Shown here piece after piece: positions 17,214 through 63,409 of a DNA stretch of 64,000 bases. The stretch covers positions 1 through 64,000 of the forward strand of contig MQRK01253082.1 in assembly GCA_001938485.1 (NCBI GenBank). The letters run 5' to 3'. How positions within the stretch are numbered: position 1 is the stretch's first letter; each line of letters begins with the position of its first letter. The position numbers and the translations under genes were made by a program. The DNA comes from Girardia tigrina (Eukaryota). The notes under the pieces were generated by a model. The model was given only the letters and a program-made list of their open reading frames with translations, made no database searches and was not told where the DNA came from.

Positions 17214-18437
17214 TACTTGTGGCCAAAAGTAAATGGTAACATGGAAAAACATCACTTTTATTTGAGAAATTCCAAACAAGCATCATAAATTTAATGATAA
17301 GTATGATGTATGTCCCCCGCGAGCTTTAATACATGCTTGTACACGGTTGCACATCGAGTCACACAAGGTATTGATGACAGATAGGTCTATGGCCTCCCAT
17401 TGATCCAGTAGGCGTTGGTGAAGTTCATGATGGTTTGCAATGGGAGTTGAGTATGCACTGGGAATTCGACGACCAATTTCATCCCACTGATGTTCTATTG
17501 GGCTGAGATCGCAAGACTTTGCAGGCCACGGTAGAATATCGAATACCATAGCTGCAAGGTAGGTCATCGTTGCCCTTGGTGTATGACATCGGGCATTGTC
17601 CTGCTGAAAGACATACCCAAATATCTCCATAACGAAGGGGACTGCCTCTGCTTCCAAGACCTCATGAATGTAACGCTTAGAATTAATATTTCCTTCCAAA
17701 ACAAGGAGACGCGATTTGCAGTTAAATCTAATGGCACCCCAGACCATTGTACCTCCTACGCTGAAGTGATTGTGCTCTCGGATGCAGTCATCATTGAATC
17801 GCTCCCCTGAACCCCTGTGTACCTTTATTCTATCATCATTGAATTCTAGTGTGAATCTTAACTCATCAGAAAATATTACACTCCTCCAAAAGGCTTGCAC
17901 CTTTATCTTGTATTAGTTACACCAGGCAAGTTGACAACGTCGGTGAATAGGTGTCAGCGGTATGCAAACCACAGGATTATGAGCCATACCCTAACTGCAA
18001 TGCTCGTCTGTTGAGAGTTCGACGAGAGATTTGCTTTGATAGTGAATATCGAAGCATTCGGTATGACCTGAATCTGTCCGGAATGATGGCCATCCGAATT
18101 TCACGATCCTCTCGAGAAGGGATAATGCGTGGACGACCATGGCGTTGAACAACAGCCCACTATCCAGAAAACTTCCATCTTTGCCACACGTTGGAAACTG
18201 TTTGCTGGGAACACCCAACAATTTCTGCAATACTTCATTGTGATAAACCTCCTTCAAGAAGGCCAACAATACACCCACGTGTGAAATCTGCAAGTTTCAA
18301 ATCTCCACCAGCTCTAAGCATGCTGCTGCAACAGATAAACGAATGAAAAATAATGTCAGGTGGCCTATTTCAGTCTCAAAAACATGCCATGATCTATTAA
18401 TAGTCATAATCTTATCATTTACTTTTGGCCACAAGTG
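17214..18437 (-). mobile_element. Tc1 element, full length with disrupted DD34E transposase
   Basis: TIRs (C/T)ACTTGTGGCCAAAAGTAAATG and CATTTACTTTTGGCCACAAGTG. ORF 17283..17900 has WRSVIFSDE, VWGAI, FQQDNAR and WPAKSCDLSPIEH. N-terminal half is broken. Confidence 0.95.
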
Positions 18438-20670: not shown

Positions 20671-21205
20671 ATATTATTTAAATTATGCATATTTGCAATC
20701 TTTAATAAAACAAAGATATATTTAGTCTATAAGCAATTTATAACTTTACTTTAATTCATAACTTTAATGATTTAATGAAAAATAGGTATAGTTTTATTTT
20801 AAACCGTTCAAGACTATGACGTGTACTACACGCCAAGATCTAACCAGTATATTTAAACGTTGCATTCACATTTTCATTGGACTTAACTAACGGATGACGT
20901 GTACTACTCGTCATTTAGAGTAGGTGAAATGTAACTGTCAGAAACAAACGAAACACGCCCCACAGTCATCACATATTGTATTTACTATAACCACAACAAA
21001 CTACAATCTCATTACAAAATAAATAATGCTCAGATCAAGAAAATATAAAAAAACAAATAGAACAAACACAAAATTAAGCCCACATAAATCAAATAATCAA
21101 GAAACACCAAAACCACAAAACAAATTCAACATGTACAGTGACACAAATAACAATTCAACATACGAAAACACATTTACACAAAGAACCAATAAATATATAC
21201 ACAGC

Positions 21206-22879
21206 CCGACCAACGAACTCTGGTATTAATCCATAACTTATCAAATCTCGAACCTCAACTTCTTTTAATAAAGTATCTTTTTCTTTATTTTCTGTAATAG
21301 GATCATCAAACTGATTGTAACTACAAATAACCGAAGACGGATTTGACGTCTGCTTTGAATTTGAGTCAGACATTTCTGAAGAAATAGTATCAGATTCTGA
21401 ATTGTCATCTCCGAAACCCATATTCCTTTTATATTTGCGATATTTAATGATTTTTTCAAGACCCGTGAAAGCACCAGATGCAATGAATAAAATATTAGAT
21501 GTATCTATGGAAACGGTTTCCGACCTTATTCACTTTGCACCTTTCATATCAGGAATGTTAACAACTGATCCTTCCAGTAACTTCAGCATGCCTTGTTGGA
21601 CTCCTTCGCCTCCAACATCCCGAATAGCATGATAAAATCCTGATTTACTTGTGATTTTGTCGACTTCATCCAAAAAAATAATTCCTTTTTGAGTTTTATC
21701 AATGTTGTAATTTGAGACTTGAAACAATTTTCCGATTACTGATTCAATGTCTTCTCCAACATATCCGGCCTGTGTGAGAGCAGTACAATCGCAAATGGGT
21801 AGTGGTACATCTAAGCATTTGGCCAATGTTTGAGCAAGGAGAGTTTTACCTGATCCGGTTGGTCCAAGAATTATTATATTACTTTTCTCTAAACGCAAAG
21901 AATTGTCTTCATTTTTAGTTTTACTTTCAATGAGAGCCAGATTTTTGGAATTTTCATTTTCTATGGTTGAACTTTTTAGGTTTGATGACATTCCTTTTTG
22001 ATTCTCGGGAGTTTCAAAATAATTGGACTTCACATAAAAATTCTGTACAACATTTTCTGTCTTCTTGTCATGATTTTCAGTTTCAGCTACTTTTTGTTTA
22101 GAAAAAGACTTGATGTCCAAAAATTTGTTAAAAATGCCTTTGCTTGGAGGTTTCCATTCATCCAGATTTTTGTCCGTCGATTGTATTTTAGGATTACTAT
22201 TCTTGAACACGTCTTTTGACAAAAAACCATCGTCTTTTGACTGCTTTGGTATTGCAGTTATAAATTTCCCGTCATTTGACAACTGAATGTAACTGGTGGC
22301 TTTAGGTTGTTGATTTTTTGAATTGAATAATATTCTGTTATAATGGGAATAGACTTGTACAGATAAAATCTGTTTTGCTTTGTCTTGACCGATGACATAT
22401 TTGTCGAGGAACTAGTGAATCTCTTTTGGTGTAGGAATGGATTTTTTCGTTTCATCGGACCTGTGGTAAACAGAATTCTTCGAAGTTAAAGTCGTGTCAA
22501 GAATTTCTTTGTCAATCACAGTAAACAGAAATTTGCATTTATCACAGACCATATATCGAAATACAGCATGATTTGATTCGATGGTTCTCAGGGGTCCACC
22601 GCATTTGGAGCATGGAATAAATCCTCCTCCGTTCCCAGAATTCGCTTTATTATTTTTGAAATCCGAATCCGGTAATTTGGAAAAAGAATTTAACTCATCT
22701 TTATTAAGTTTCAAAAAGTTTGTAAGTGCTTTTGCTGGCACTATTATACCTTTATCATTGTTATATCGACTGTTTTGACAGTTAACTTCAACCAGTTGAG
22801 GTGATAGTTTAGCTAGATGAAAGACCAGAAAATTAAGTTGTCTCAAATAATTTCTAAGTATATCTGTTTCTACTAACAC
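21206..22879 (-). pseudogene. CLPX: Mitochondrial-type ATP-dependent Clp protease ATPase subunit CLPX pseudogene, 3'-truncated
   Basis: One continuous frame across ORFs 22412..22879, 21530..22282 and 21155..21421. Motifs in order: C4 finger CSKCG...[26 protein letters not shown], Walker [17 protein letters not shown], Walker [50 protein letters not shown]. Stops are TAG at 22412-22414 and TGA at 21530-21532. Homology ends at FVGR. Confidence 0.92.
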
Positions 22880-23120
22880 AAAAAAAAATTATAAAGCTAA
22901 ACTGGTCTGACAACCTATCCGTAATTTGTGTCAGTCCAATTTAGTTATCAAATCAATCAGATATAACAAACTTAAGTAACAATAATTATATTAACAACAA
23001 TTCAACGGAAAGTTTGGTAAAAAGAAGGCTTTGGTTTTTTTATCACACAAAAAAAAGAAAATGATGTCACTTAGAAGAGAATGTCACAAAAAATAATCAA
23101 AAGTACTGTCGATTACTTCA

Positions 23121-23216
23121 ATTTTGGGTAGAATTGTTTGAGAGATGTTCAAAGTCTGATTTTGGGTAGAATTGTTTGAGAGATGCTCAAAGTCCGATTT
23201 TGGGGAGAATTGTTTG
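23121..23216. repeat. 38-bp tandem repeat, about 2.5 copies
   Basis: Unit ATTTTGGGTAGAATTGTTTGAGAGATGTTCAAAGTCTG starting at 23121, 23159 and 23197. Confidence 0.95.
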
Positions 23217-26092
23217 ATTGCTAGGATTATTCTTAATCTTAATGATTCTATATTCAGATATTTTTCCTTTTTGTATCTTGGTTTTAACGCAGTAATAGCT
23301 CCTCGCTCAACGTATTAATATATTTTGTTTATTGTTTTGAATTTTTGCATTAATTGTTATTTGTCATTAATCAATATTCATTTTTATTGATTTTTTTATA
23401 ATTCGTCATTGACGACGATTATTTTAATATAATTATTTTGACCACACAGCCCGACCAAGCAAATGTNNNNNNNNNNNNNNNNNNNNNNNNNNNNNNNNNN
23501 NNNNNNNNNNNNNNNGCCGGAGTTATTTTCTCTTGTTTGAGGTTTGACGTGAATAAAAAAAATAAAATTTGTCGTAATAAAAATAAAAGCCGCGTTTGAC
23601 AAAAATAAGTTAAAAGTCAATCGAGCAATAAGAAAAACAACAAAAATAAAATTAAACAACAGAAATCAGACACACCCACTATTCCCTCATACATATACAC
23701 ACGTCACTAAAAGGAACAACAAAAATAAAGAATCAGTAGGGCACTACAGTAACGAACCTATCATATCGACTAATGAGATAGAAATTGTCAAGCTGTGTGT
23801 TTGAAAGGTACTGAAAAACGGCGAAATATTGCATCGATTGTGCCTTAACATTATAATACGGAAATTGCAAATATATATTTTCCTAAAATTTTCATTTTTT
23901 TCTCCAATGACAGAAGATGGTTCAGAAGAAGAATCAACACACAAGCCAAGCTGAGTTGGACATGACAATTACTGAAATGTTATCTCTTTTCTTGATCCGT
24001 TTGAAAAACAAACACGGCACCTTTTCGCTGGATTAAGCTGGTTCTGTTGCAAAGAAATCTTCGAGGGAAAATGGGCAGCATCGAGTTGACTCTATTGCAC
24101 AACAACTTTGAGTTTTCTGACATTGTCTGTTGACTCCAGCAGATGTTTGATGACCGCCTCCTGGTAGGAGAGAAAATCCTTGACTCCTTGATGTTCTTGA
24201 TACACAATCCAGGAGTTTCATATCAGCAGCTGTACGAAGTAGGTGCCGTATTTCGTAAACCAGCGATGGGTTTTCCTCGTACAATCATAATGGTGAATTG
24301 CAGAATCTGTTAAATCAACGCCACCCATGTGGGTGTTGTATTGAAGGATGGTTGATGATTTCTCCCGAATTACTTCAAGACCACCACGGTAAATAGTGCG
24401 TGTGGTCTCAAGAGAAGCAGTTCATTGAGAATCAATAAGATAGATGCATTTTTCAGCACCAACGGCTTTTTTCTCCACATATTTCACCAGCAGAATGTTC
24501 TAAAAAAAGTAAAAATTTCTTCTCTTGCATTGCAGGAGGAATACCAAGATTTTGTTTAATTGTTCCAGTATACAATGTGTTTCTCGTTTAGAGAAATTAA
24601 ACCAGGCGTAAACTGGAAAACCAATCGTCAATTACCAAACCAATTATCAAAGCAATTGTAACCGAGATCTCTTAATGGTTGAATTAAATGCACAACGATG
24701 CGTTCTGACATTGAGAGCAGATGCGCACTTTGAATATCGGCAGCGAAGTTGTCGTGATCTTCACGAGTAGTGTGAGTTGCGAAATTCCAAAAATATCCAC
24801 TGTCCGATTCACACAAAGTATAGGTTTTGATTCCATAACGAGCTCTTTTCGAAGGAATATATTGTCTGTTAAACACTCGTTTACGGAAAAGCATTAGATT
24901 TTCATCGATGCTCAAGTTTCGGTCTGGAAAGTAATTATTCATGCACAATTCACGAACTTGTCCACAGAAGTCTCGCATTTTGCGAAATGGATCATTCATG
25001 TTGGCTTCGGACTGAACATCATAGAAGCGAAGCAATATGAAGTATAATGAGTTAGCGATCACGGGATAGACAAAACACACTAGAGAAATAGAGCGTCGAA
25101 TAAAATGGAGATGTACTTTAATAATGGTGGACAGCAGGCTTACGGATAATGCCCATATAAAGTGTCATTTCCCAAAATTTCTTCATTTCCTGAAGTGTTA
25201 CATCCTAGAAATGGAGATCGAACTCCTGTTGATTCTCCTGATTTGAAGACTGTTCCATGCTGCTTGCACATTTATTTGTCCAAAGACACAAAGTTTCTAA
25301 TAGAGAGTCAGGAAAAAATAAGTTTACGTAGAATACCACGTTATTGTCAACGTCCTGAGGTGGATCTGTTCCAACATAGCCAGGAATTCCAAAAAATTCT
25401 AAACATGGTTGAGCTCTAATTTTCTTAGTAACATTATGAATAAATTTCCAACATCTTGAGCATCATTGTGTAGGAGTTCGTCACATGCAATAAGGGAGAT
25501 AGAGGAGGATGAAGTGGAAGAGATGGAAGGAGGTGAAGATTCCTGAGAGGCGTCAACATCCACAAAACCAAGTCTTTCATAAGCTATATTCAATACTCGG
25601 CATTTGTTGAATACTTGTTGAATTCAAAGAAAATGTTATACAGAATATCTTTGCTTGTGATTGGTCGATTCCAATAAAAGAAACTCCATTCTGTTCCTTG
25701 CGTGTCCCAGATTCTATTTTTAGCATCAACGGCTTTATTTGAGTGAAATATATAGAAACAACAGCCTTTAATAATAGAAATGCGTGAATAACACGTCACC
25801 GCCGAATGGTGCCATGAATTTCATAAAGTGTAATACACGTCAACGTCTTTTTCACCCATAAGGCACTGACGTGCAGTACACGTCATCCGTTCTATTAGAC
25901 CATATAATGTGATAAATGCAAGGTTCTTTACAGTATTATGTGCGTTACGTGTTATACACGGCATCCGTCCCAATAGCCTATGGACTCAGTACGACGAGCC
26001 GTCGTGAACGGGTAAAACAAATTCAATCACAAAGCATTTAGCAAAACAAGAAAATTTGGAATGAAGTTGGATAATTATTTATAAGTAGGTAC

Positions 26093-28543: not shown

Positions 28544-29840
28544 TTGGGCTGACCAAAAAGTCATTGCGTTTTTTACTAAAATATTTATTATCAAAAAATG
28601 ACATGGATGCACAAATATTTTTACACGATATACTGTCCATTATTTTCAATCACTTTCTTCCACCTTTCCGGTAGCTTCATTATTCCTGATTCATAAAAAC
28701 CTTTGCCTTTGTCAGCAAAAATCCGTCTGCGAACGATTTGATATCATCATCACTGGCGAATGTTTTTCTGTTTAAGGAATTCTGCAGTGATCTAAATCGA
28801 AAAGTGGCAAATAAGTGAAAATCGGATGGGGCCAAGTCTGCAAAATACGGTGGGTGCGGCAAAATCTCCAAACCCAGTGATAATAGATTCTGGCGAGTGG
28901 TCAAACTTGTATGCGGTCTTGCGTTATCATGCTGAATTACGACTCCTTTTCGATTTGCCAATTCAGGACGTTCCTTTTGAATTGAATGAGCCAATTTCTC
29001 CAGCTGAACACAATATCTGTCTGAATTGATGGTTTCATTCCTCGGAAGGAGTTCAAAAAACACAATTCCTGTAAAATTCCACCAGACGGAAAGCATAAAC
29101 TTCTTTTGGTGAATTTCTGCTTTTGGGATCGTTTTGGCAGGCTCACTACGTTTTGTCCATGATCATCAGCGTTCAACATTGTTGTAAACAATCCATTTTT
29201 CCTCATCCGTAATCAAGCGCTTCAAAATGGGATCACTTTGTTCTCGCTTCAAAAAGAAATCGCAAATGTCTATACGTTTCAGCAAATGAATTTCTTTCAG
29301 TTCATGTGGTAACCACATATCGAGTTTACTGACGAATCCAAGTTTCTTTAAATGACTTCCAACACTTGATTTTGATATTTCCAGAGTCTCTGCAACTTCT
29401 CTTGTCGTCATATGTNGATTAGATTTGATCAGTGCTGTTATTTTGTCGCCATCGAATTTAACTGGTCGACAGGATCTTGGTGCATCTTTCAGATGAAATT
29501 TTTCAGAACGAAATTTAGAAAACCAGTATTGACACTGTCGAAGTTTCAAGGAGTCACTACCATATACAAAAAATATCTTCATATGAGCTTGCACAGCGGT
29601 TTTCCATTTACGAAAATAATGCAACAAAACATGACGAATATGCACATTTTGATTTTCCATTTCGAATTGACGGTAAAGTAATAAATTAAAACAAAATCAA
29701 TTAATATTTTNNNNNNNNNNNNNNNNNNNNNNNNNNNNNNNNNNNNNNNNNNNNNNNNNNNNNNNNNNNNNNNNGTTTTATATTTTCAAGTTTTTTATTA
29801 GGACGTACTCAAAAAAGCAATGACTTTTTGGCCAACCCAA
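28544..29840 (-). mobile_element. mariner (DD34D), full length, frameshifted transposase
   Basis: TA|TTGGGCTGACCAAAAAGTCATTGC and GCAATGACTTTTTGGCCAACCCAA|TA. ORFs carry WLPHEL, TDEEKWI, HDNARPH and PYFADLAPSDFHLF. Confidence 0.95.
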
Positions 29841-32150
29841 TACATACTGAGTTATTTAAATGCGTGCACTTCAAAAAAATTGTAAACTCGTAAACCTCAA
29901 ATTAACCATAGACTACTTTTTCTAAGTCGCACTTTAAAAATGATATTTTAAATTCTTGGATCATGGTGATTTTAACATAACTTTTAGGCAAGGTAAATAA
30001 TTTATTTACTCTACATTAGCAATTCCCAACCTTTTTTGAGCGCGGACCGGTAAAATTATATTAATTTCTTTGCAGACCGGTGAACATATATTTAATATAT
30101 TACTTGATGTATATTATATATATATATATATATATTATAGACATAAATTTTATAAATTTTATATAAATTTTAATTAAACATTACAGTGGGACACAAAATA
30201 CAACACAAAACTATCAGATCGATTCAATGTGAAATCTGCTGCTGCTTTTTATTTAAAATCTTCGCAAGTTGCGGCTGCAACGATGTTTCAGATAGGCGCA
30301 GAGCAGCATTTAATTGAAGTCGGTTTAAATATTTTGTTTTGTTGTGTACCACAACATTTAACAACAAATACATTAAAAAACACTTATTTTATTGTAAAAA
30401 ATACATATAGTATCGTGTAAAAAGACTTTTTCTTTCAAGGTAAAAAATTAATTTTTATGTCAAAATTATTTTATGCTTAAAAAAGACAATGCAAAAATGA
30501 TATTTTTTTAATTTTTTAATTAAATAAATTTTGCAAAATGCCGAGTTGGCTTATTTTTAAAAAAAATCAATTTTTAAATAAATCAATTTATAAAATGGTC
30601 ATCGCCAATAACAAATCCAAGGCGCAAAAAGCAATCGCTAATCTCGACAAATCGACCAGTTTCGTCGGGATTCCATCGATCCTTTTCAAAAGCAAAACTC
30701 CAAAAAATCCTCGTTCATCATCGCTACCCCTCACCGAGCATTTCTTCACAAAAGTATCAAGCGACAAGAGTGCCAAATAATCGACAGTCAAAAACGAAAA
30801 TTCCCCGACGAAGAAACCGCATCGAATTTGCACCAAGAAATCCGATTGACGAACGCGTACGCGTATTTATATAATTCTTTAATTTCTTCGTCCGCGTTCC
30901 CTTGCTCGAATAAATCGATCGTGACTCCCCATTGCGTGAGGAAATTGTGACTGCCACCGCCGAAAATTCGCGTGAAGTCATCGGACTTCGTCGATAAAAA
31001 ATCGATATTGGGTGATCATGAAATTTGCTCCGCACCGATAGTGAGTCCTACGAGTGCTCCGACCCGGTGACCATTCAAACCGACTATATTATCGGTTATT
31101 ATTTCCGCCGGGACGGTTCAGGTCGAAACTCCGCATTTTAACGATAACAGTTATAATAGGTTTTAATAGCCGTCTTGCAAGAAAACGTTTTTTCACAAAG
31201 GTATGTTGTTGCAAAAGTAATAAAAAGCTTCAAAGCCTTTTCATTGAGAATCGGATACTCTTAACTTACAGAAATCCATAACTGTGTCAAAGGCATTGAT
31301 TTAATATTTGTTTCTAGAGTGCAATCAGGGAACAATTCAATGAGATTTTCCTTCTCTTTTGGTGTAAGTTTCATGGAGTTAATGTCTGCTTTAAATGGAT
31401 CACAAATCAAAAAGTTCCCAGTGCGAAGATCTTCATCTTCAGGGTAATACTGGTCAAAGTTTTTAACCAATTCATGTAGATGTTGACTTACTACACTGCT
31501 AATAACTGTTCGTTTCAAGTCAGTAGACTGTCATAAGTATTTTCATTTAGAAGGGTAAACATTGGTAATTCTATTTCTGTTAAGAACTGCTTCCACAATA
31601 ACAGTTTATTTTTTAATTCCACATTATGCCAAAGTGTTAAAATATTCGTCATCCTTCCTAGGAGAGACACGTTGAAATTAATGAGAATTGAGAATATATC
31701 AGCCAAGTAAGCAACCTTCGCAATCCATTCCTTATTTTCTAGAAATTGCAAATGAAAGGACTTTGAAACATGTAGAAATTCTTTTATTTCTTTTCTTAAT
31801 TCAAAGAATCTTGAAAGAACCTTGCCCTTGACAATCGCCTCACTTTAGAATGTAATACGAGTTGCCGGTACTCAGAATCCATATTCTCACACAGCATCTG
31901 AAAGAGTCGAGAATTAAAGATCGACTTTGAATTTCATTCACAATCTTCACAATCTTTAAAGATTCTTTTGTACATTCTCCACCAGAAAACCTTTTATAAT
32001 TTTATTTAAATTAATAAATGCATCATGTAACTTGATCCTCAAGAACCAACCTTAACTGCTCTTGTAAATCACTAAATTTAATATATTTTCACTTCATAAC
32101 CCAATTTTTTTACCAAACTGATTTTATATATTAAACACAATAAGATGACC

Positions 32151-34613
32151 CGGTTGTCATTCAAAATGTCCAAATTCAAAATGTCCAATGTCAAAATGTC
32201 CGAACTCAAAATTTCCAAATTCAAAATGTTCAAATTTAAAATGTCCAAATTTAAAATGTCCAAATATCAAAATGTTCAAATTCAAAATGTCCATATTTTA
32301 AATTTAAATGAAAAATGTAAATTTAAAATATTTGAAATGGTTCATTCAATTTATTAAATACTAAAGTAATAAAATAAATAAAATACTACAATAAATAAAA
32401 TACTAAAATTAATAAAATACTTAAATGAATAAAAAACTAAAATACTAAAATAAATAAAATGCTACACTACATAAAATACTACAATAAGTAAAATAATAAA
32501 ATAAATTAAATACTAAAATTAATAAAATACTAAAATAAATAAAATACTAATATACTAAAACACTAAATTATAAAAAAAATAAAGTGAAAAGAATAAAATT
32601 TTATTAATATATTCTTTCAACTAAATCCCAAAAATAGTCCTCAGGCAGCATCCCATTTGTTTCTTTTTCAATAATAAATTCCTTTAATCTATCACTAATT
32701 ACAACGTATTTGCGCGCTCTACGTATTTTTTCTCCTGCACCAATTCTTAGAAACCTGTGATGAATAGCTTCTTCTTCGTCGACTAACTTTTTAACAAAGT
32801 TTCTTGATGTTTTATTAAGAGCTACAAATGTTGCTCTAAAAATATTATGCCATCCTTCAATGGCGTTGTTTGTGCGCAGTGTATTTTCTATAATACTAGA
32901 TCTATTATTCCATAGAGTGATTTCAAAGCGTGGTGGTTGATCGTTAGAGCCGATGTATGTTACAAAAAAATAGTCATACAAAGTGTGAGGAATATTTTTG
33001 AATGGTGTTTATTATGTGTTGTTTGGTATGTTGTTTTAGGATTGTGTTTCTCCCACCCAGATGGAAGATTGATATTCTAAATATTTTAAAATTTGTTTAA
33101 TCAATTATTAAAATTTAAATAATCACTTTAAAATTAAACTAATATTTCATAAATAATATTTTAATAATATTTTCTTAAAATAAATAAAAAATATTTCAAA
33201 ATTAAAGTATAAATTATTTTTGTAATAATTAAATTGTAATTTAAATTTGTTTGAATAATAAAACGTTAAAGAATATTATTAAAGATTATCAATCAAGAAG
33301 GATGACGAGCTACGCAAGTTTTACGGAGAATTGTTCTAGTGGCAATTCAGATTGTGATAATAATAAATGTAAAGAAAATCCAATTAATGTTCTTAATACA
33401 AAGAATTAAGAGAAATAGGAAAATCAATTAATGTTTGTAGCCATATGAAAATTTTTGAAACTTGATTTAGTGGAATAAATGCTACAGCTTTTAAAGCTTT
33501 AACAAATCATTTCATTTGTGGCATATTCGATTCCCAAAGAGTTTTGATCAATTTTTCTGTGAATATTCTTTGCCAAATGAAAAAGGCATTCAGTAAAACG
33601 AGACGCAGGAAATGCATTCTTAAAAGCATTTATACCAGCAAGCTCAAAATCCGTTATAATAATATCTGGGACAAGATCAATTTCCAGATATTTTAATATA
33701 TTGAGGAACTCAAAATAAATTTTATACGATTTTGACGGCAATAATCCGAAAACTATTGGAATTACATGATAGTCAACAATGATTGATATTGTATGCATCT
33801 GTTTCCATCCCTCAGGACAAGTATCAAACGTACCATCGATGCAACACAATCTATAAACCTGTAAATTTTGAATCATTGTATCTGAATAAAAATACATATA
33901 CAACTATTATATTCTAATTCACGTCGTCTATTAGGGCCGCATTGATAAAAATTTGCATCTCGACGAGTAAACATTAATTCTTCCTCGATGTTCAATACAG
34001 GTTCATATATAAGATCCGTATTTTCCTATTTATTAGCTGAACTAATGAAGCCAGTGTTCCTGTTGCGGCAATATTACAGATATTTTCATTTTCTAAGGCA
34101 TCATTAATAATCTCTCTGGGCGAATTTTCCGTATTTATGACAGATGATATAATTTGGGCTATTATTAGTCTACACTAAACCAGATCAGCTTTTGGAGCAT
34201 GATTATGTTCTTTTGATATTTAAACATTAGGTTGTTCTTAAGCACCACCCTTTTTTATCAACTATGTTTTTACTGACCCTTCACAGCTTCTAAACGTGCA
34301 CCTCCATGTTATCAATGACTTCCCTATATGCTTTATAGTGTATTCATGTGCAATATATTGTAGAATTTTTCATCCTTTTTGGTTCTCAGAAAATTCAACA
34401 AGCAAATTTTTAATTTTATTTACATTTTCAATTTTTGTAAAAAATTTTTGAATTTGGACATTTTGATTTTGGACATTTTGATTTTTGGAAATTTTGATTT
34501 TTGGACATTTTGAGTTTAGACATTTTAAATTTGGACATTTTGAAATTTGTCCATTTTGAATTTGGACATTTTGAATTCAAAAAATTTGATTTTGGGCATT
34601 TTGAATTACCACG
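32151..34613 (-). mobile_element. Mutator-like element (MULE) with disrupted transposase
   Basis: Long inverted termini built from 15-bp AAAATGTCCAAATTC repeats. 8-9-bp TSD AGATGACC(C) at 32143 and 34614. IDGTF, IITDFE, CLFH and RTNNAIEGWH motifs, plus an N-terminal WRC...C...HNH finger. Confidence 0.92.
32984..33398 (+). mobile_element. Solo LTR (TGTGAGGAATATT family) inside the MULE transposase
   Basis: TGTGAGGAATATT...TCTTAATA with exact TSD CAAAG at 32979-32983 and 33399-33403. Confidence 0.9.
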
Positions 34614-50829: not shown

Positions 50830-51377
50830 CCAATGCATTTCATCCTTTAATCTTATATCGATGGCGTCTCTTATTGTTCTGAATTGTCTTTCTATGATCC
50901 CGTTAGTGTTGTGGTGATAAGAGCTTGAGTAGACTATCGCCGTCCTAAATTTATTCGTCGTTTCTTTAAAGAGTACTGATTCGAAAGTTTTCCCTCTATC
51001 AACGTCTCTCTTTTGGTGATCCGAACTTCCAAATCCATTTCTCTAATAGCACCTTTTGTGTAGTCTTCTCGTCTTGGTGTGCCACTGCGGTCAAGCTGAT
51101 GTACCTACTAAATTGATCGATTATTGTTAAAATGTATTGACATCCATTCATAGTCCTTCTGAATGGTCCGCAAAATTCCATGTAAATTTGTTGAAATGGT
51201 TCGTCGGCAGATTGTCTGTGTGTCTCTTTCGTTTTGCTGTCAACGTCTTCCTTTTCTGGCAGTTTTCGTAACTTAGTACGATTTTCTTTATCTGTTGTCT
51301 TATTTCATACATATCAAAATCATCTTTTATGTAATTGAATACTTTCTAACTTCCTGCATGGCATAACATTTTATGTA

Positions 51378-53226
51378 CACTACCGTGCTAATTAGTTGGG
51401 ACACTTCGTTTTTCGGTGAAAACTCAGCAACCATCAATCTGATTTTAATGAAATCAACAACCAAGGTGTTAATTGAGTAGAATATTATACTCGCAACGTT
51501 TGGTTAAGATATCTTTAACACAACGAAAGATTCGACTTTTTTTAATGAAAACACCCCGTGCAAAATACTTGGGACACCATCCATTTTTTGACAATTCTAC
51601 ACTGTACTGTATATTTATCCATCAGAAATAAAACATTTACAAGAGTTTCTTCTTCCAAATTTAATAGTGTGTGTATCCACCATGATTTGTAATGCACTCT
51701 GCAATGCGTGCAGGCATTGACGTTGCTAGTTTTTAACAAATTGTTACAGTAGAAACATCTTGCCATTGCTTCAACATTTCAGCCACCACAGACTGACATC
51801 AAGAAGTGGAAAACGACGTACATTATTTTTTATGATACCCCACAGATTCTCTATGGGGTTGAGATCAGGTAAATAAGGTGGCCAATCTAAAATGTTGATG
51901 TTATTGGATTGAAAAAAAGCCATAGTGGCGCGAGACTTGTGGCAGGGAGCATTATCCTGTTGGAATATGCCACTGCCATCCTGGTACTGAGCTTGAATGT
52001 GGAGTAGCATGTTATCCTGTACAGTCTGAATGTAATTACCACTCTTCATATTTATAATCAATGTTGATCAAAGGGCCTGGACCAGCGGCGGAAAAGCATC
52101 CCCAGGAGAGGACTCTTTGGACAAACGCTCAATGAGTCATCGTATGTTCGTCGCGAATCCTTTCATCTGATATACGGCGGACAAATCGAGACTGAGCAAC
52201 ACCGACATGCACGTACGTTTCATCCGAGAACAAAACCTAATGAAAATAAACATAAAAATACAAAATAATGTTAATTTTGGAGTCTTTATTTACGATTATA
52301 CTGCTTTTTAGTTTACTTTTCGCCAATTTTCAGCTGTGCAGTGCTGATATTGACGATACCATTGCACGCGCACAGCCTTTTGATGGGGGGTGAGAAAAAG
52401 ACTCTTCATATGCCTATAGGCCAGTTTCCCATGCTTTCGTAGAGTTCTTTTAATTGCGTCAACGTATACACGGATATTTCCACACACACAAGCTTGTAGC
52501 TCTCGGGCAGTGGCTTGAGGATTCATTGTGCTGGCTCGGTAGACACTCCTCTCATACCTTATGGTCAATAAATTAGGACGACCACATCTTCCACGACGTC
52601 TGAACGAAATTTACCCAGTGTTTGAATATCATTTGATAATATTTCCAATGGTTGACTTTGGTAGATTGAGGTTTCTTGTAATTTTTCTGATGGATAAACC
52701 ACTCATATGATGCTCAACTGCAACTTTTCTAATGTTTTCAGCCACATCCATGGTATCCAACGGACGTATAAGTATAAACAGACTTGATTCAGAAGAAAAT
52801 AATCACATTACTTTATTATGTGCATTTATATAGAGCGGGTGACTGATGTCAATGCTGAAGAATGTGATTGGTTCATATACACACATCAGTCAAACATAGT
52901 CAACCTTCGCACAACGTAAAGCTTATTAAAACACGACAAAATACACGACCTGTGTACACTGACAAGAAAACTTTCAAAGGAGATGTCAATTTATGGATTT
53001 ACATCAATGTTTCGCACTTGAAAAGTGATGTCCCCAGTAATTTGCACGAGGTGTTTTCATTAAAAAGGTCGAATCTTTCGTTGTGTTAAAGATATCTTAA
53101 CCAAACGTTGTGAGTATAATATTCTACTCAATTAACACCTTGGTTGTTGATTTCATTAAAATCAGATTGATGGTTGCTGAGTTTTCACCGAAAAACGAAG
53201 TGTCCCAACTAATTTGCACGGTAGTG
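51378..53226 (-). mobile_element. IR/DR-type Tc1 element with about 200-bp TIRs and an intron-containing transposase, inserted in the gypsy
   Basis: TA|CACTACCGTGC...GGGACAC and its nearly identical inverse ending GTAGTG|TA. Inner direct repeat CCGTGCAAA...GGGACA. Motifs WRK|VLFSDE, FQQDNAPCH and WPPYLPDLNPIENLW. Confidence 0.97.
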
Positions 53227-55142
53227 TATATCTTCTATAAAGTCTGTTCTCTTCATCATAGGGATCCAATATTTGTTATCTCTTGTCGTCACGATATTGT
53301 TTTTCAGTATTCATTCTTTTGTATTTCACATGTTAATATTTTCTTTAATCTGTCTTTAATATCGTCCAGGTATACAACTGCTTCTTTCCAGCTAAATTCT
53401 CATAACACTTGTCATTAGTTCTTGAAATGTCGCTGGGGCAGCCGCAATTCCAAATGAAATTCTTTTAAAACAATATTAGCCGTTCTTTGTCGAAAATGTA
53501 GTTTTTATTTTTGAATCGTTCTCCAATTCAACTGGATGATATGCGCTCCCGAAATCGATCGTGCTAAAGTACTTCACTCCATTTAATGTATTCAGCATTT
53601 CTTCCACATTTGGCATTGGAAATGCTGGTCTGATTGTGACTTTATTTAATTGTCGAAAATCAACACACACTCGGGTATCCTGTTTGTCTTTTTTCCATAC
53701 GCATACTAGCGGGAAATTCTACGGCGAACTGCATTTTTCAATGATATCATTTTCCTCGTAATTCTTCCTAATATCATCCAGTTTTTCCTCAGTGTTTTGA
53801 CTGTCCGTCAGTTAAATTATCGCGTATTACCGGCACTCCTTCGTTGTATCCTGTTTCTTTCTTTAGTTTTATGCTGAATTTATTTAGAAAATCTATTCCT
53901 GCAATCATTTCTGACATTCTTTCCCACTCGTCATCGGAGACTTCTAATTCTGCTACATGGTCTCTTCTATTCGTATATCCCATCCGACCTCTGTACTGTC
54001 TGTGCATTCTTTTTGTTCATTTCTGCTATTCCTTGTATCTTCTCTTCCAGATTGTGCACGTTCTCTAAATCTGTATAGATTCTCATAACATTGTGTTCTT
54101 ACATGCCCTTTCTTGTTACAATGGTTGCATTAAAGATTTGGGGTCATCGCCTCTGGGGTCATGAATGCTGTTACTAATATTGCTTTTCATTCTTCCTTAA
54201 GACCCAAAATCTTTGAATATCTCTCAAAGCTTATTAGTAATTCTTCTAATTTTACATCTAACCCATATCAATGTTTCCGGTGCCTTGATCATTGGTGTCA
54301 CTTGATCGTGTGTAACCATATTAAGAACATTTAGACAAGTCGCGTCATTATGACTCTCAGAAAGTCTTTCATCGTTTGTCATCATTCTAATTGGTTTTCT
54401 CATTTTTATATTTAATCATGATTATTCGAACAATTTTTCTAGGTTATTTTTTTAAATATATTAATTAAAAATAATAAATTTTACCATTTTTCAATAAATC
54501 CCGAAATAATAAAAATGTCATCAAATTATCAAACCTACATTTAATTTAAAATTTTCCAAAAATAATAAACTTAATTTTAACTGTTCAAAAAATTAAAATA
54601 TGAACTTATAAAATGATTATTTTAATTATGTTCGAAGAGTCACTTTAAATTTAAATAAAAAAATACCAATTTCCATCTGGGTGGAAGAATCACCATTGTA
54701 AATTCAACATTCTTAAATCAACATACATCATCACTACATTTACACATTCAAACAATTTAAACAATTTAAATACAAACAATTTAGAACCGTGTAGCACACG
54801 TTTATATTATAATTGATTTTTACAAAATTTTATTGCTTTAATACATTTAATTATGACGACCAAATGAACGCCGTCGAGATGAACTGCTTCAAAAATAACT
54901 AGAATATTTTGACAGAATTTTTCGTACCAATCTGAAACCATTAAGTAAATTTAGAGTATAATAGTGATACGAATTTGAATATATTTGTTGAAATGAATTT
55001 TTGAATCTCATTGTTGAAAGGAAATGAAGTCTATTAATCAACGAAACATTTTGATTTTTTTTGTCGAATTTTGAATTTACAATACAAATAATACCAACCA
55101 TTTCTGAATTAACGATCAATTTGGTGCCAATAATTTACTAAA

Positions 55143-59544: not shown

Positions 59545-60790
59545 TTAATTCCCAAAGAAATAATAATCTGAATTAAGAATTTTCGATCTGGGTGCAAAGA
59601 TCTCTTTACTGTTGTTTTTATTAGTATTACTATTATTACTAGTATTATTACTCGATCGCCACGGACCACTGCTGCTGTTTCTGATAATCATTGATTGGTG
59701 TGATGGAAGAGGAGAAGAATTCGATGGCTGATGTCGAATGATTTTCTCATTGATCAAATTAAATTGATTCTTATTGTCTCGTGAAACTGAACTAGTCGCT
59801 GAAGACAGCATACAGGCGGGATTATCTTCGGTATGATCAGAAATTTTAATATTATTGTTACTATGGCGGTAATAATCGGATCCAACTCCGCTTGTGCGGT
59901 ATGGATTGAATTGACTGTGATTGTGATAGTTTTGTTGACGATATTGATTGTGACGAGAGTGAGATTGGTGCTGATTCTGTTGGTTACGGGTTGCTGTGAT
60001 TGAAGCCAGTTTCTCACCATGATTATAATCGAATGATATACAAGAGGATGTGTGAGACGAGTTGTTAGTGACGACAGACTTTATCGGATTTTCTTTAGTC
60101 CCTGTGTCAGTATTATCAGTAAAAGTAACGATATTATCGAGAGTAAAATCAATGCTATTATCGGATGTGTCATTGGTTTTAGAGACATTGGTTTTAGAGA
60201 CATTGGTTTTAATGACATTGGTTTTAGAGACATTGGTATTAGGGACAGTGTTGCCAACAGTATTTTTATCAACGGTATTGTCTTTGGTGTTATCGACGAG
60301 ATTTTCGGTAGTGCTATTATCAGCTACACTTTCGTTTGGCTCAATCAAGCTCGCCGCATGGTGCATATTTGTGAATTTCATTAGAGCCTCGTTCAACTTG
60401 ACTGGATCGACTTCGGCATCTTGTGGTATTGTCGCAAGAATCGATTTGATGAGTTCTTTTGCGTTTGGAATTAATTCCGATAGAGCTTCCGATATCTCAT
60501 TCGTGTCCAATTTCTTTAAATAACTACTACCAGACTGGTGTGTGCCTCCATCGGCTCCATTGATACTATTACTGAGGCTATTGCTATTGTTGTTATTTGA
60601 TTTACAGAACGTGTTATTTGATGATTCATGGTTTTTCAGAGATGAATCAGGTTTTGTATTACTCCGAGACGATTTTATTTCACCAGATAAATCGACGCCC
60701 ATTTTATGGGCTTTCAATTCTTTTTCTTGTCTCATTAATTTTCGGCGTTTCTTACTCGATAATTCGTGACAATCTCGATCCTTCGGAAAA
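59545..60790 (-). CDS. Probable large 3' exon (about 414 aa) of a host gene encoding an Asn/Ser/Thr/His-rich protein of unknown function
   Basis: Longest stop-free ORF in the window and not TE-like. Acceptor TTTTCAG at 60791-60797 separates it from intron-like AT-rich sequence. Basic NLS-like KKRRK. 15-bp TNVSK repeats at about 60165-60240. Upstream exons not identified. Confidence 0.6.
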
Positions 60791-62379
60791 CTGAAAATTG
60801 ATAATACAATTAATATATCACTTACAAAAATTAAGCATATAAATAAATTAATTGGAAATAAAATGAAACTATATTTCAAAATAGAAAAATACTCCATTGT
60901 GCAGAAGAAATGATAATAAAAGAAAATAAGAATGATTACATTTATTAATTATAACAGGACATCATTACATTTTAAATATTCTGTAGCAAATTTCTGTTAT
61001 TGGATGAATGAAATGGGTGTGGTAACACAAACTTAAGAACTTAGTCGACAAGAGGTTAATAATAAATAATGTAGAACCCATTAAAAGCATACCAATGTGA
61101 TATTAAAATTTATTGATTCTAAATAATCATTTTGATTGTAATGCATAGAAAGACCAACAGACATAAAATGCACTTCAAATGAAATATAAACTTGTACATG
61201 AAAACAAATTATTTTGATTTACTGCAACAACGTGACTATGTAATAATTGCATATTTGTTCTACGTATAATTTTAGTTTATTAAATACTTTGGTATAAAAT
61301 AATAAGCGAGCCTTTGAGACCCGTATGGTCCATAGTGCTACATTTTATAAGTCTTTCTCGGGTAAATTAGACTGTTTTATGAAGCAATATTACGATTAGA
61401 TCATATTACTATTAATTAATGTTCCGATAGCAGTCTTAACTAAGTAATTAAGTTTCTGATAATTAAAATGATTTCGTGCAAGCTGACCCAATGGGTTAGG
61501 CAAAACTGGAAAGTTTGAAATATAAGGAAACAAAAAAACCAAATAAAAATATTAAAATAAATTTTTTTTCTTATAAATATTACTCAAAAATTTTTAATTA
61601 TTAATTTAAAATTTATAGTCACATTTTGTATCATTTTTTCAGATTTTCTTGATTAGTAAAAAACTATTTAACTAATTAAAACCAATGAAGAACAATTTAT
61701 TCAATAAATTATGCAAATATGAAACTTTTTAACAAAAATTCATTGAAGATAAGATTAAAGATAATGAAATCGATTCTCGGATTCCGCCGGCCAATAAATG
61801 CCTTCCAATTCGATATCCATTCCATCGAACAACACCGATAACATTTCGTTTTTCTTTTGCTCCGTCAATAAAATCAATTCATAAAATAACGAATTCTTAA
61901 TATAGTATACACCAGCCATTATGTATGAACACATGACTTTCTCTCAGTATTTCTTTTTATAAAAGAATAAAGCGTTTAACATCACGAGTTTTAACATCCC
62001 AATAAACAAAATATTTTGCAAACGAAACACAGTGGAATTAAAAATTAAAAGTGAATTAAGAATTAAAAAACAAAAAAAATAAAAAACAAAATTTTTGACT
62101 TTTAAAATGTAGGTAAACGAATTTTTCAGATTTGTTTTAGTAATTTCCTACTTTAAAATAAAACATATTACAAGCTTTTTGAAGCAGGAATCGTCCTGGT
62201 TTATTTTAAGGTACAAAATATTCAGAAAATTCGTCCATCACAATCCACTTAGACAAGAAAGACGTCATAAAATCATCGGTTCAACAAATTATCATTATAT
62301 TTAATGTTATAATCCTACAGGGTACAGTTAAACCAATCAATTAATTAACAAGAATTAATTAACAATCAACACAATGATT

Positions 62380-63409
62380 TGATCCAAGTGTTACCATCTA
62401 AATAATTTTGTAGAGACCGGAACAAATGATAATCAGAAGGTGCGAGGTCNGGAGAATATGGTGGGTGAGGCATGATGTTCCATCCAAGCTGTAAAAGCTT
62501 TTGGCGAGTTACCAAACTTGTATGAGGTCTGGCATTAACTTGGTGAAACACTACACCTTTTCTATTGATCAATTCTGGCCTTTTGTGTTGAAGGGATTCA
62601 TTTAATTTGTCCAGCTGATGACAGTAGACGTCCGAATTGATCGTAGTTTTGTCCGGAAGAAGCTCATAAAATACGATTCCTTTGAAATCCCACCAAACAG
62701 ATAACATCACTTTTTTTATGAATGTCAACTTTCGAAGTGCTTTGAGCAGGTTGATCTTTTTTACTCCAAGATCTCTTGCGTTTTACATTATTGTAGACTA
62801 CCCATTTCTCTCATCTCCAGTGACAAAAATCTATCATTTTCTTGACGTTTTAGAAGAATATCGCAGATGTCTAAACGACAGCATAAATTTCGTTCCGTAA
62901 GATTATGAGGAATCCATGTGTCGAGTTTTGATGTAAACCATAGGCGCTTCAAATGATCATTGACGGTCGAATTAGATAAATGTACTGTCTGGCAATTTCG
63001 CGAGTTGTTATTCGCCGGTTTGAATCAATTAATGCCTTTATTATGTCTTCGTCGGCCTCAATGGGCCTTCCGGAACGTGAAGAATCTTCAACATCTAAAT
63101 TTCCGGATCTAAATTTTATAAACCAGTTTTGGCATTGGCGTTCTGTCAACACATCTTCTCCATACAATTCGCATAATTTTCTTCTTGCTTGTACAGCATC
63201 TTTACCTTTTCGGAAGTAAAAAAGTAATACATGCCGTTAATGCTGATTCTTGCTTTCCATCTTTGATAGGTCAAAAATCAAATATAAATGTTTTCAATTA
63301 TTCCAAAATTTTCCAAATCTAACCTTGATTACCAACTGCTAAAATAAATTAAAAAAAATACATTTAAAACAAGTATTAAAAAAACGAAATGACTTTCCGA
63401 ACAACCCAA
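62380..63409 (-). mobile_element. mariner (DD34D), 3'-truncated, related to 28544-29840
   Basis: TIR CGAAATGACTTTCCGAACAACCCAA|TA. Motifs MLSVWWD, NARPH and PPYSxDLAPSDYHLF. Confidence 0.9.

Follow-up and report, generated by a model that had tools for sequence, protein, structure and literature searches.

The window analysed here is the first 64,000 nucleotides of contig MQRK01253082.1 (forward strand) in the Girardia tigrina assembly GCA_001938485.1. It contains a partial, intronless copy of the CLPX gene, enclosed in an insertion that otherwise consists of long terminal repeat (LTR) retrotransposon sequence. The inserted unit spans 20936-23748 (2813 bp) and comprises, from left to right, the leader and gag start of an LTR element, the CLPX retrocopy and a single LTR (Table 1). 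The loss of introns, the junction sequences, the orientation of the parts, the termini and the target-site duplication (TSD) can be read directly from the assembled letters.

Both flanks of the insertion belong to one host repeat, which allowed comparison with paralogous empty sites. Sixteen were examined, two of which are masked; all 14 unmasked sites carry the 5-mer once (GTAAC in 12, GTAAT in one and GCAAC in one), and 12 empty sites run directly into the right flank within 5 mismatches. Solo LTRs of the donor family are likewise bordered by 5-bp TSDs. Given the 5-bp duplication, the empty sites and the TSD size of the family, we conclude that 20936-23748 was inserted as one unit bearing the family's signature. 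Both 3' termini of the insertion read ACA. An earlier note on this DNA had instead placed the right border of the insert at the second copy of an exact 15-base repeat and proposed a 15-bp TSD from target-primed insertion into a genomic LTR. This does not hold: 584 LTR bases (22860-23443) separate CLPX from the right 15-mer, beyond which the LTR continues to 23748, and other LTR copies read straight through the 15-mer. The transposase fragment in the host repeat matches DDE_Tnp_1_7, a Pfam family that we take to be piggyBac-like.

The CLPX reading frame has mitochondrial CLPX as its top PDB matches (E 7e-62). The genome encodes a single parental CLPX, split over contigs C245345, C254890 and C235932, and all nine of the parental introns in the span are absent from the window copy, with ten exon blocks tiling 21207-22859. 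The passage through an RNA intermediate suggested earlier is thereby borne out. The copy is cut at both ends, with the 3' truncation that the note had recognized; its 3' end lies mid-exon at the residues V-G-R, and no poly(A) follows the CLPX stretch. The coding stretch was correctly described as intronless, but its CLPX-derived part is 1653 nt long rather than 1.67 kb. Retrocopy and parent differ by 13 substitutions over the 1653 nt (99.2% identity); the comparison listed 14 differences, one of which is a block-edge artefact. Of the 13 sites, seven have the window's letter alone in public run X1, 22414 has the parent's alone and 22061 has both; site 21532 is uncovered and three sites fall outside the displayed data. 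Because the run carries window letters at 7 of the 13 sites, many of the differences are probably allelic and the copy appears to be young. Stop codons are present at 22412-22414 and 21530-21532. Each arose by a C-to-T change and belongs to the small set of differences whose letter was not seen in the allele of another run. As a gene the CLPX copy is dead, a pseudogene without any indication of function, and the insertion has no primer binding site (PBS) or polypurine tract (PPT) placed for further copying.

The LTR of the insertion is a mosaic in which the subfamily type changes within ~23327-23347, a stretch that contains AATAAA. The extent of the missing U5 end was judged against the solo LTRs L002 and L003. 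The junction between CLPX and the LTR was defined by three-way comparison and coincides with the loop of a 15-bp U5 hairpin that is present in intact LTRs of the window's type (the U5 end of L002 folds at -13.5 kcal/mol, a value computed without a shuffle control). At the position of the assembly gap, a sister LTR copy (L032) has exactly 49 letters. The 14-mer at the U3 end of the LTR has 2248 exact copies in the genome.

The left flank, 20936-21203, is 97-98% identical to the best leader/gag copies (up to 97.5%). At every fetched locus with both parts, the leader follows the LTR via a PBS that begins with TGG, in the orientation opposite to that in the window. A gag open reading frame was identified in two copies (L127 and L040), although its match to DUF7041 is weak and below the cut-off. 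The left terminus of the insertion is a CA that lies three bases inside the PBS; in other leader copies, TGG and an LTR end precede the PBS motif. The PBS end, TGTTTCTGACA, and the U5 end of the same LTR type, TGTTTCTACA, are one inserted base apart. Among 41 intact copies, the spacer between ACA and the PBS is 3 bases in 21, 2 bases in nine and 4 bases in one, and none was found in the ten that lack ACA just before the PBS. As 3 bases is the commonest spacer, a trim of three bases would be in register. Conservation of the PBS within the family is limited to 11 bases.

The 15-mer, ACACAGCCCGACCAA, occurs exactly at 21199-21213 and 23444-23458, as the earlier note had reported; these two matches compare with 0.03 expected, and none of 100 shuffles gave two. 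It has five exact matches genome-wide, three of them outside the window, each found once inside an LTR. In these three LTR copies (L031, L032 and L033), which carry the 15-mer once, as the note had anticipated for empty copies, both flanks are the same as those of the window's right copy. Thus, the LTR is uninterrupted at 23444-23458, and the 15-mer is not a TSD. If R is placed at ~23327-23347, the right 15-mer would probably lie inside U3.

The left 15-mer is composite. The gag start reads ACACA, TA and CC(C/A)GA, and CLPX contributes CGACCAA, while the window reads ACACA, GCC and CGACCAA in succession, identical to the LTR. The GCC is found in neither gag nor CLPX, and none of 29 leader copies has it. 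A 19-base pattern over this junction, with 1 mismatch allowed, matches only the window in the whole genome, and no leader variant that natively reads ACACAGCC was found among the 29 leader copies or with the genome-wide pattern (at most 1 mismatch). The left 15-mer was probably copied from an LTR, since a simple fusion of gag to CLPX could have recreated the LTR sequence only through a chance deletion together with a substitution. The parent reads GTT GGT CGA TTT at V-G-R-F, with CGA where the note expected CGG, and it has 7 bases in common with the 15-mer in place of the proposed 8-nt microhomology. The priming geometry described in the note stands: on the plus strand, 5' to 3', the 15-mer represents LTR minus strand whose 3' end pairs with CLPX mRNA, and it is followed by CLPX cDNA. 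Such a polarity is what a transfer of nascent minus-strand DNA to the mRNA would produce. The left 15-mer is likely a relic of an LTR minus strand that primed on CLPX mRNA.

Table 1. Features of the CLPX-containing insertion and its host site; positions are those of the 64,000-nt window.
Feature	Position	Strand	Description
Host repeat, left part	20798-20930		Decayed DNA transposon end; continues at 23754; DDE_Tnp_1_7 transposase fragment at 24631-25164
Left TSD, GTAAC	20931-20935		Paralogous empty sites carry the 5-mer once
PBS remnant, TGTCAGAA	20936-20943	+	Initial TGG (three bases) missing; forms the left insertion terminus; minus strand reads ...CTGACA-3'
Leader and gag start of LTR element	20936-21203	+	Inverted relative to the window LTR
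Left 15-mer	21199-21213	+	5 bases common with gag start, then GCC, then 7 common with CLPX
Spliced CLPX retrocopy	21207-22859	-	Ten exons fused; runs from coding-sequence base 15 to the Arg of V-G-R and lacks a start codon
CLPX/LTR junction	22856-22860		Three matching bases and one mismatch, in the loop (top) of the 15-bp U5 hairpin
Single LTR	22860-23748	-	U3 end intact (TG at 23748); last ~30 U5 bases missing
Right 15-mer	23444-23458	+	Ordinary internal LTR stretch; same flanks in L031, L032 and L033
Assembly gap	23467-23515		49 N inside the LTR; begins 8 bases right of the second 15-mer
Right TSD, GTAAC	23749-23753		5-bp duplicate of the left copy

The donor family is likely Ty3/Gypsy. LTRs of the form TG...CA, a PBS, a PPT (the purine tract before 3' LTRs) and a short TSD are all present. 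The copy L128 encodes reverse transcriptase followed by RNase H, with no integrase match before the reverse transcriptase; the rve domain was identified in a separate copy (L131), and no examined copy has all three. The TGG-initial motif directly follows the LTR, and no tRNA genes were found in 12 sampled of the 310 loci with a longer version of the motif. The primer is presumably tRNA-Leu. Across the family's LTRs, the first ~14 bases and the leader are common while U3 and U5 blocks are freely exchanged.

Other insertions of the family also have unusual ends. L071:1504-2645 (G000:C188536) and L072:119-1126 (G000:C96329) each end in U3 on both sides, the two in inverted orientation, and are bordered by 5-bp TSDs; they thus indicate that the family integrates products with non-standard ends. 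They are two of seven distinct loci in which the start of U3 is at least 95% like the window's, in a sample biased towards double-U3 loci. In L071, a whole LTR is accompanied by an 18-base PBS, by a short copy of the U5 end in inverted orientation and by 77 inverted U3 bases; the arrangement resembles the outcome of extension and integration of a plus-strand strong-stop DNA. In L212 (G000:C16182:1-1142) an inverted U3 end takes the place of U5 and is followed by 3 bases, an intact PBS and the gag leader (the contig ends 99 bases into the LTR); this locus may represent an inverted-end LTR whose layout is still usable. L133 (G000:C225259:115800-125799) has two near-identical LTRs 3.6 kb apart, a purine tract before both and a shortened internal part. 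It was considered as a further inverted-end case and rejected because a matching TSD was not found; it is a tandem or deleted element. In L128:4519-5217 (G000:C224864) the pol frame breaks after RNase H and enters a fragment that matches the Monjiviricetes_fusion glycoprotein (E 4e-19), possibly another RNA captured by the family.

We favour, with moderate confidence, an origin in which reverse transcription of the element switched template onto CLPX mRNA and the integrase used the PBS as its second end; the order and number of switches given here are inferred. A minus-strand cDNA that had copied U5, R and part of U3, and ended in ...CGACCAA, would have paired with CLPX mRNA and been extended along it. 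After 1.65 kb, this cDNA would have transferred to a plus-sense LTR, at the loop of its U5 hairpin, and been extended to the end of U3. The opposite strand, once past the 15-mer, may then have moved to the 15-mer-like gag start of an element RNA and run to the end of that RNA at the PBS, giving ...CTGACA-CCA-3'. Minus strands of LTR elements end at the PBS before second-strand transfer. Integrase would finally have trimmed three bases to expose CA and inserted the normal U3 end and the PBS end 5 bp apart. Template switching by reverse transcriptase during LTR replication had been listed in the earlier note as an alternative, and it is the one that fits.

Several observations weigh against this reconstruction. 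A single end product cannot reveal the order and number of switches, and the PBS-type end rests on one case. The 7-base match to CLPX is weak by itself, as 225 of 1636 CLPX 7-mers occur in the LTR, which is not above chance. The model probably also requires integrase to act on an RNA/DNA hybrid or on an end that is only partly double-stranded. Among 70 sampled U3 ends (60 plus 10 classed, one duplicate dropped, drawn from the first 100 listed of the 2248 and picked for room on the element side), none is inverted or PBS-ended, though many are cut by contig ends; the set of 60 comprises 25 contig ends, 15 solo LTRs with TSD (one doubtful), 13 unresolved, four 3' LTRs and three 5' LTRs. A genome-wide search with one leader variant yielded no second PBS-ended case. 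Its two further matches have mutated PBSs behind an LTR-like end and were rejected as PBS-ended insertions. Finally, no contig that bridges the junctions was identified among the contigs listed from four public runs (X1, X2, X4 and X7). In those contigs the host sites are empty, gag starts continue normally and CLPX is parental; none of those listed is a chimera such as co-transcription from the LTR would give.

An origin from two molecules fits almost as well and is the strongest competitor, although we regard it as rather unlikely. Here a single intasome would have combined two cDNAs, an LTR-CLPX molecule through its U3 end and a separate, stalled one through its PBS end; the two ends would have been inserted 5 bp apart, and host end-joining would have fused the inner ends at ACACA. 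It departs from the template-switch model only at the third step, the transfer to the gag start, and predicts identical termini and an identical TSD. What look like end-joining scars are seen at the inner junctions of both L071 (a short inverted templated piece) and L072 (four unassigned bases). However, the window's own junction has no scar bases, and both inner ends would have to be trimmed to the sole spot of resemblance between LTR and gag.

Less probable again is one-ended integration, in which the U3 end alone was joined by integrase, the other end being built by host repair that copied nearby element DNA in inverted orientation. Aberrant proviruses of human immunodeficiency virus (HIV) and avian sarcoma-leukosis virus (ASLV) provide a precedent, with one normal end and the other joined to viral DNA in either orientation (as described in PMC5041404). 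The host duplications described there are usually far longer than 5 bp, or are replaced by deletions, but the duplication in the window is exactly 5 bp and the end of the insertion falls exactly on a CA. We consider an assembly chimera of repeats and CLPX sequence very improbable. The assembly is fragmented (255,254 contigs), the LTR contains a gap and the listed contigs of the four runs provide no bridge, but an assembler would not create an exact TSD relative to empty paralogues, CA termini, spliced exons with stops and a 3-base insert that matches the LTR, and the 49-N gap has the expected size.

Priming of reverse transcription inside CLPX mRNA by a nicked genomic LTR would account for the exact 15-mer on both sides and for the polarity, but is hardly credible given that the LTR is uninterrupted at the right copy, that the left flank is an inverted gag leader, that the true 5-bp TSD lies outside both 15-mers and that none of the five genomic matches is an empty leader-LTR join at a single 15-mer. 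DNA-level capture of an intronless gene, also raised in the earlier note, found no supporting evidence and is refuted by a parent with 9 introns in the span, distributed over three contigs.

The template-switch origin places the locus close to the LTR-mediated retrocopies of Tan et al. (2016; PMC5131818). There, the mRNA takes the place of part of the internal open reading frames, and both LTRs should coexist since integrase needs both termini. The window copy resembles them in that its mRNA part is partial, spliced, truncated at both ends and without poly(A). It also has LTR-element sequence on both sides (U5 on one, the gag leader on the other) that does not derive from a once-continuous element, and short matches at the junctions, with 7 bases at the 3' junction and 3 plus a mismatch at the 5' junction. 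Unlike those retrocopies, it has one LTR, the other flank is inverted and a PBS remnant forms the second terminus beside the TSD; the word "inverted" is absent from the main text of that paper. A literature search, with subscription papers and supplements outside its scope, found no paper on a PBS-ended or single-LTR retrocopy.

Comparison with other systems points to both precedents and differences. As in the HIV and ASLV proviruses of PMC5041404, one end is normal and the other has element DNA (in either orientation in the proviruses). That paper ascribes the second end to host enzymes and reports a duplication that is usually long, in contrast to the exact 5 bp and the CA terminus seen here. 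When overexpressed, the integrase of Ty1 can insert foreign DNA that has TG-CA ends, and it generates 5-bp TSDs (PMC2939329). That a CA terminus suffices for insertion of non-Ty DNA with a 5-bp TSD is a shared feature, although the Ty1 work used engineered PCR fragments and an overexpressed enzyme in yeast, and the window holds a natural germline insertion. Like the processed pseudogenes made by long interspersed nuclear elements (L1/LINE; hallmarks as outlined in PMC5131818), the copy has lost its introns, but it lacks poly(A) and a long TSD at the mRNA borders, and is strongly truncated at the 3' end. Unlike a solo LTR, which is a complete LTR between 5-bp TSDs, its U5 end is replaced by CLPX and the inverted leader.

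Elsewhere in the window, DNA-transposon relics were identified at 51373-53231, 32144-34612, 28683-29696, 17286-17912 and 62369-62782. Features among them include 170-bp inverted arms at 98%, inverted arrays of 15-bp units, and mariner and DDE_3 transposase fragments. A stop-to-stop frame of 467 residues at 59545-60948 on the minus strand has no Pfam match and overlaps a 15-bp tandem repeat (60153-60250).

The insertion is the product of a known route of gene copying, LTR-mediated retrocopying, but its single LTR and PBS end depart from the two-LTR rule. In the published model of LTR-driven duplication a pair of LTRs is expected, as integrase requires two ends, whereas this locus combines the family's exact TSD with one LTR and a PBS end. 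It also retains, in 15 bases, a vestige of the strand that is likely to have primed synthesis on the mRNA. If PBS ends recur, the selection of ends by integrase in vivo would appear looser than assumed and retrocopies made by LTR elements would be undercounted. We suggest, tentatively and with more doubt than for the template switch itself, that the minus strand ending at the PBS (...CA-CCA) may be a natural decoy attachment site for the family's integrase, through which stalled or mis-switched reverse transcripts, including those with host mRNA cargo, could enter the germline with one LTR. If that is true, one-LTR retrocopies would be missed by searches that require two LTRs, and new LTR variants may originate from products with inverted ends.

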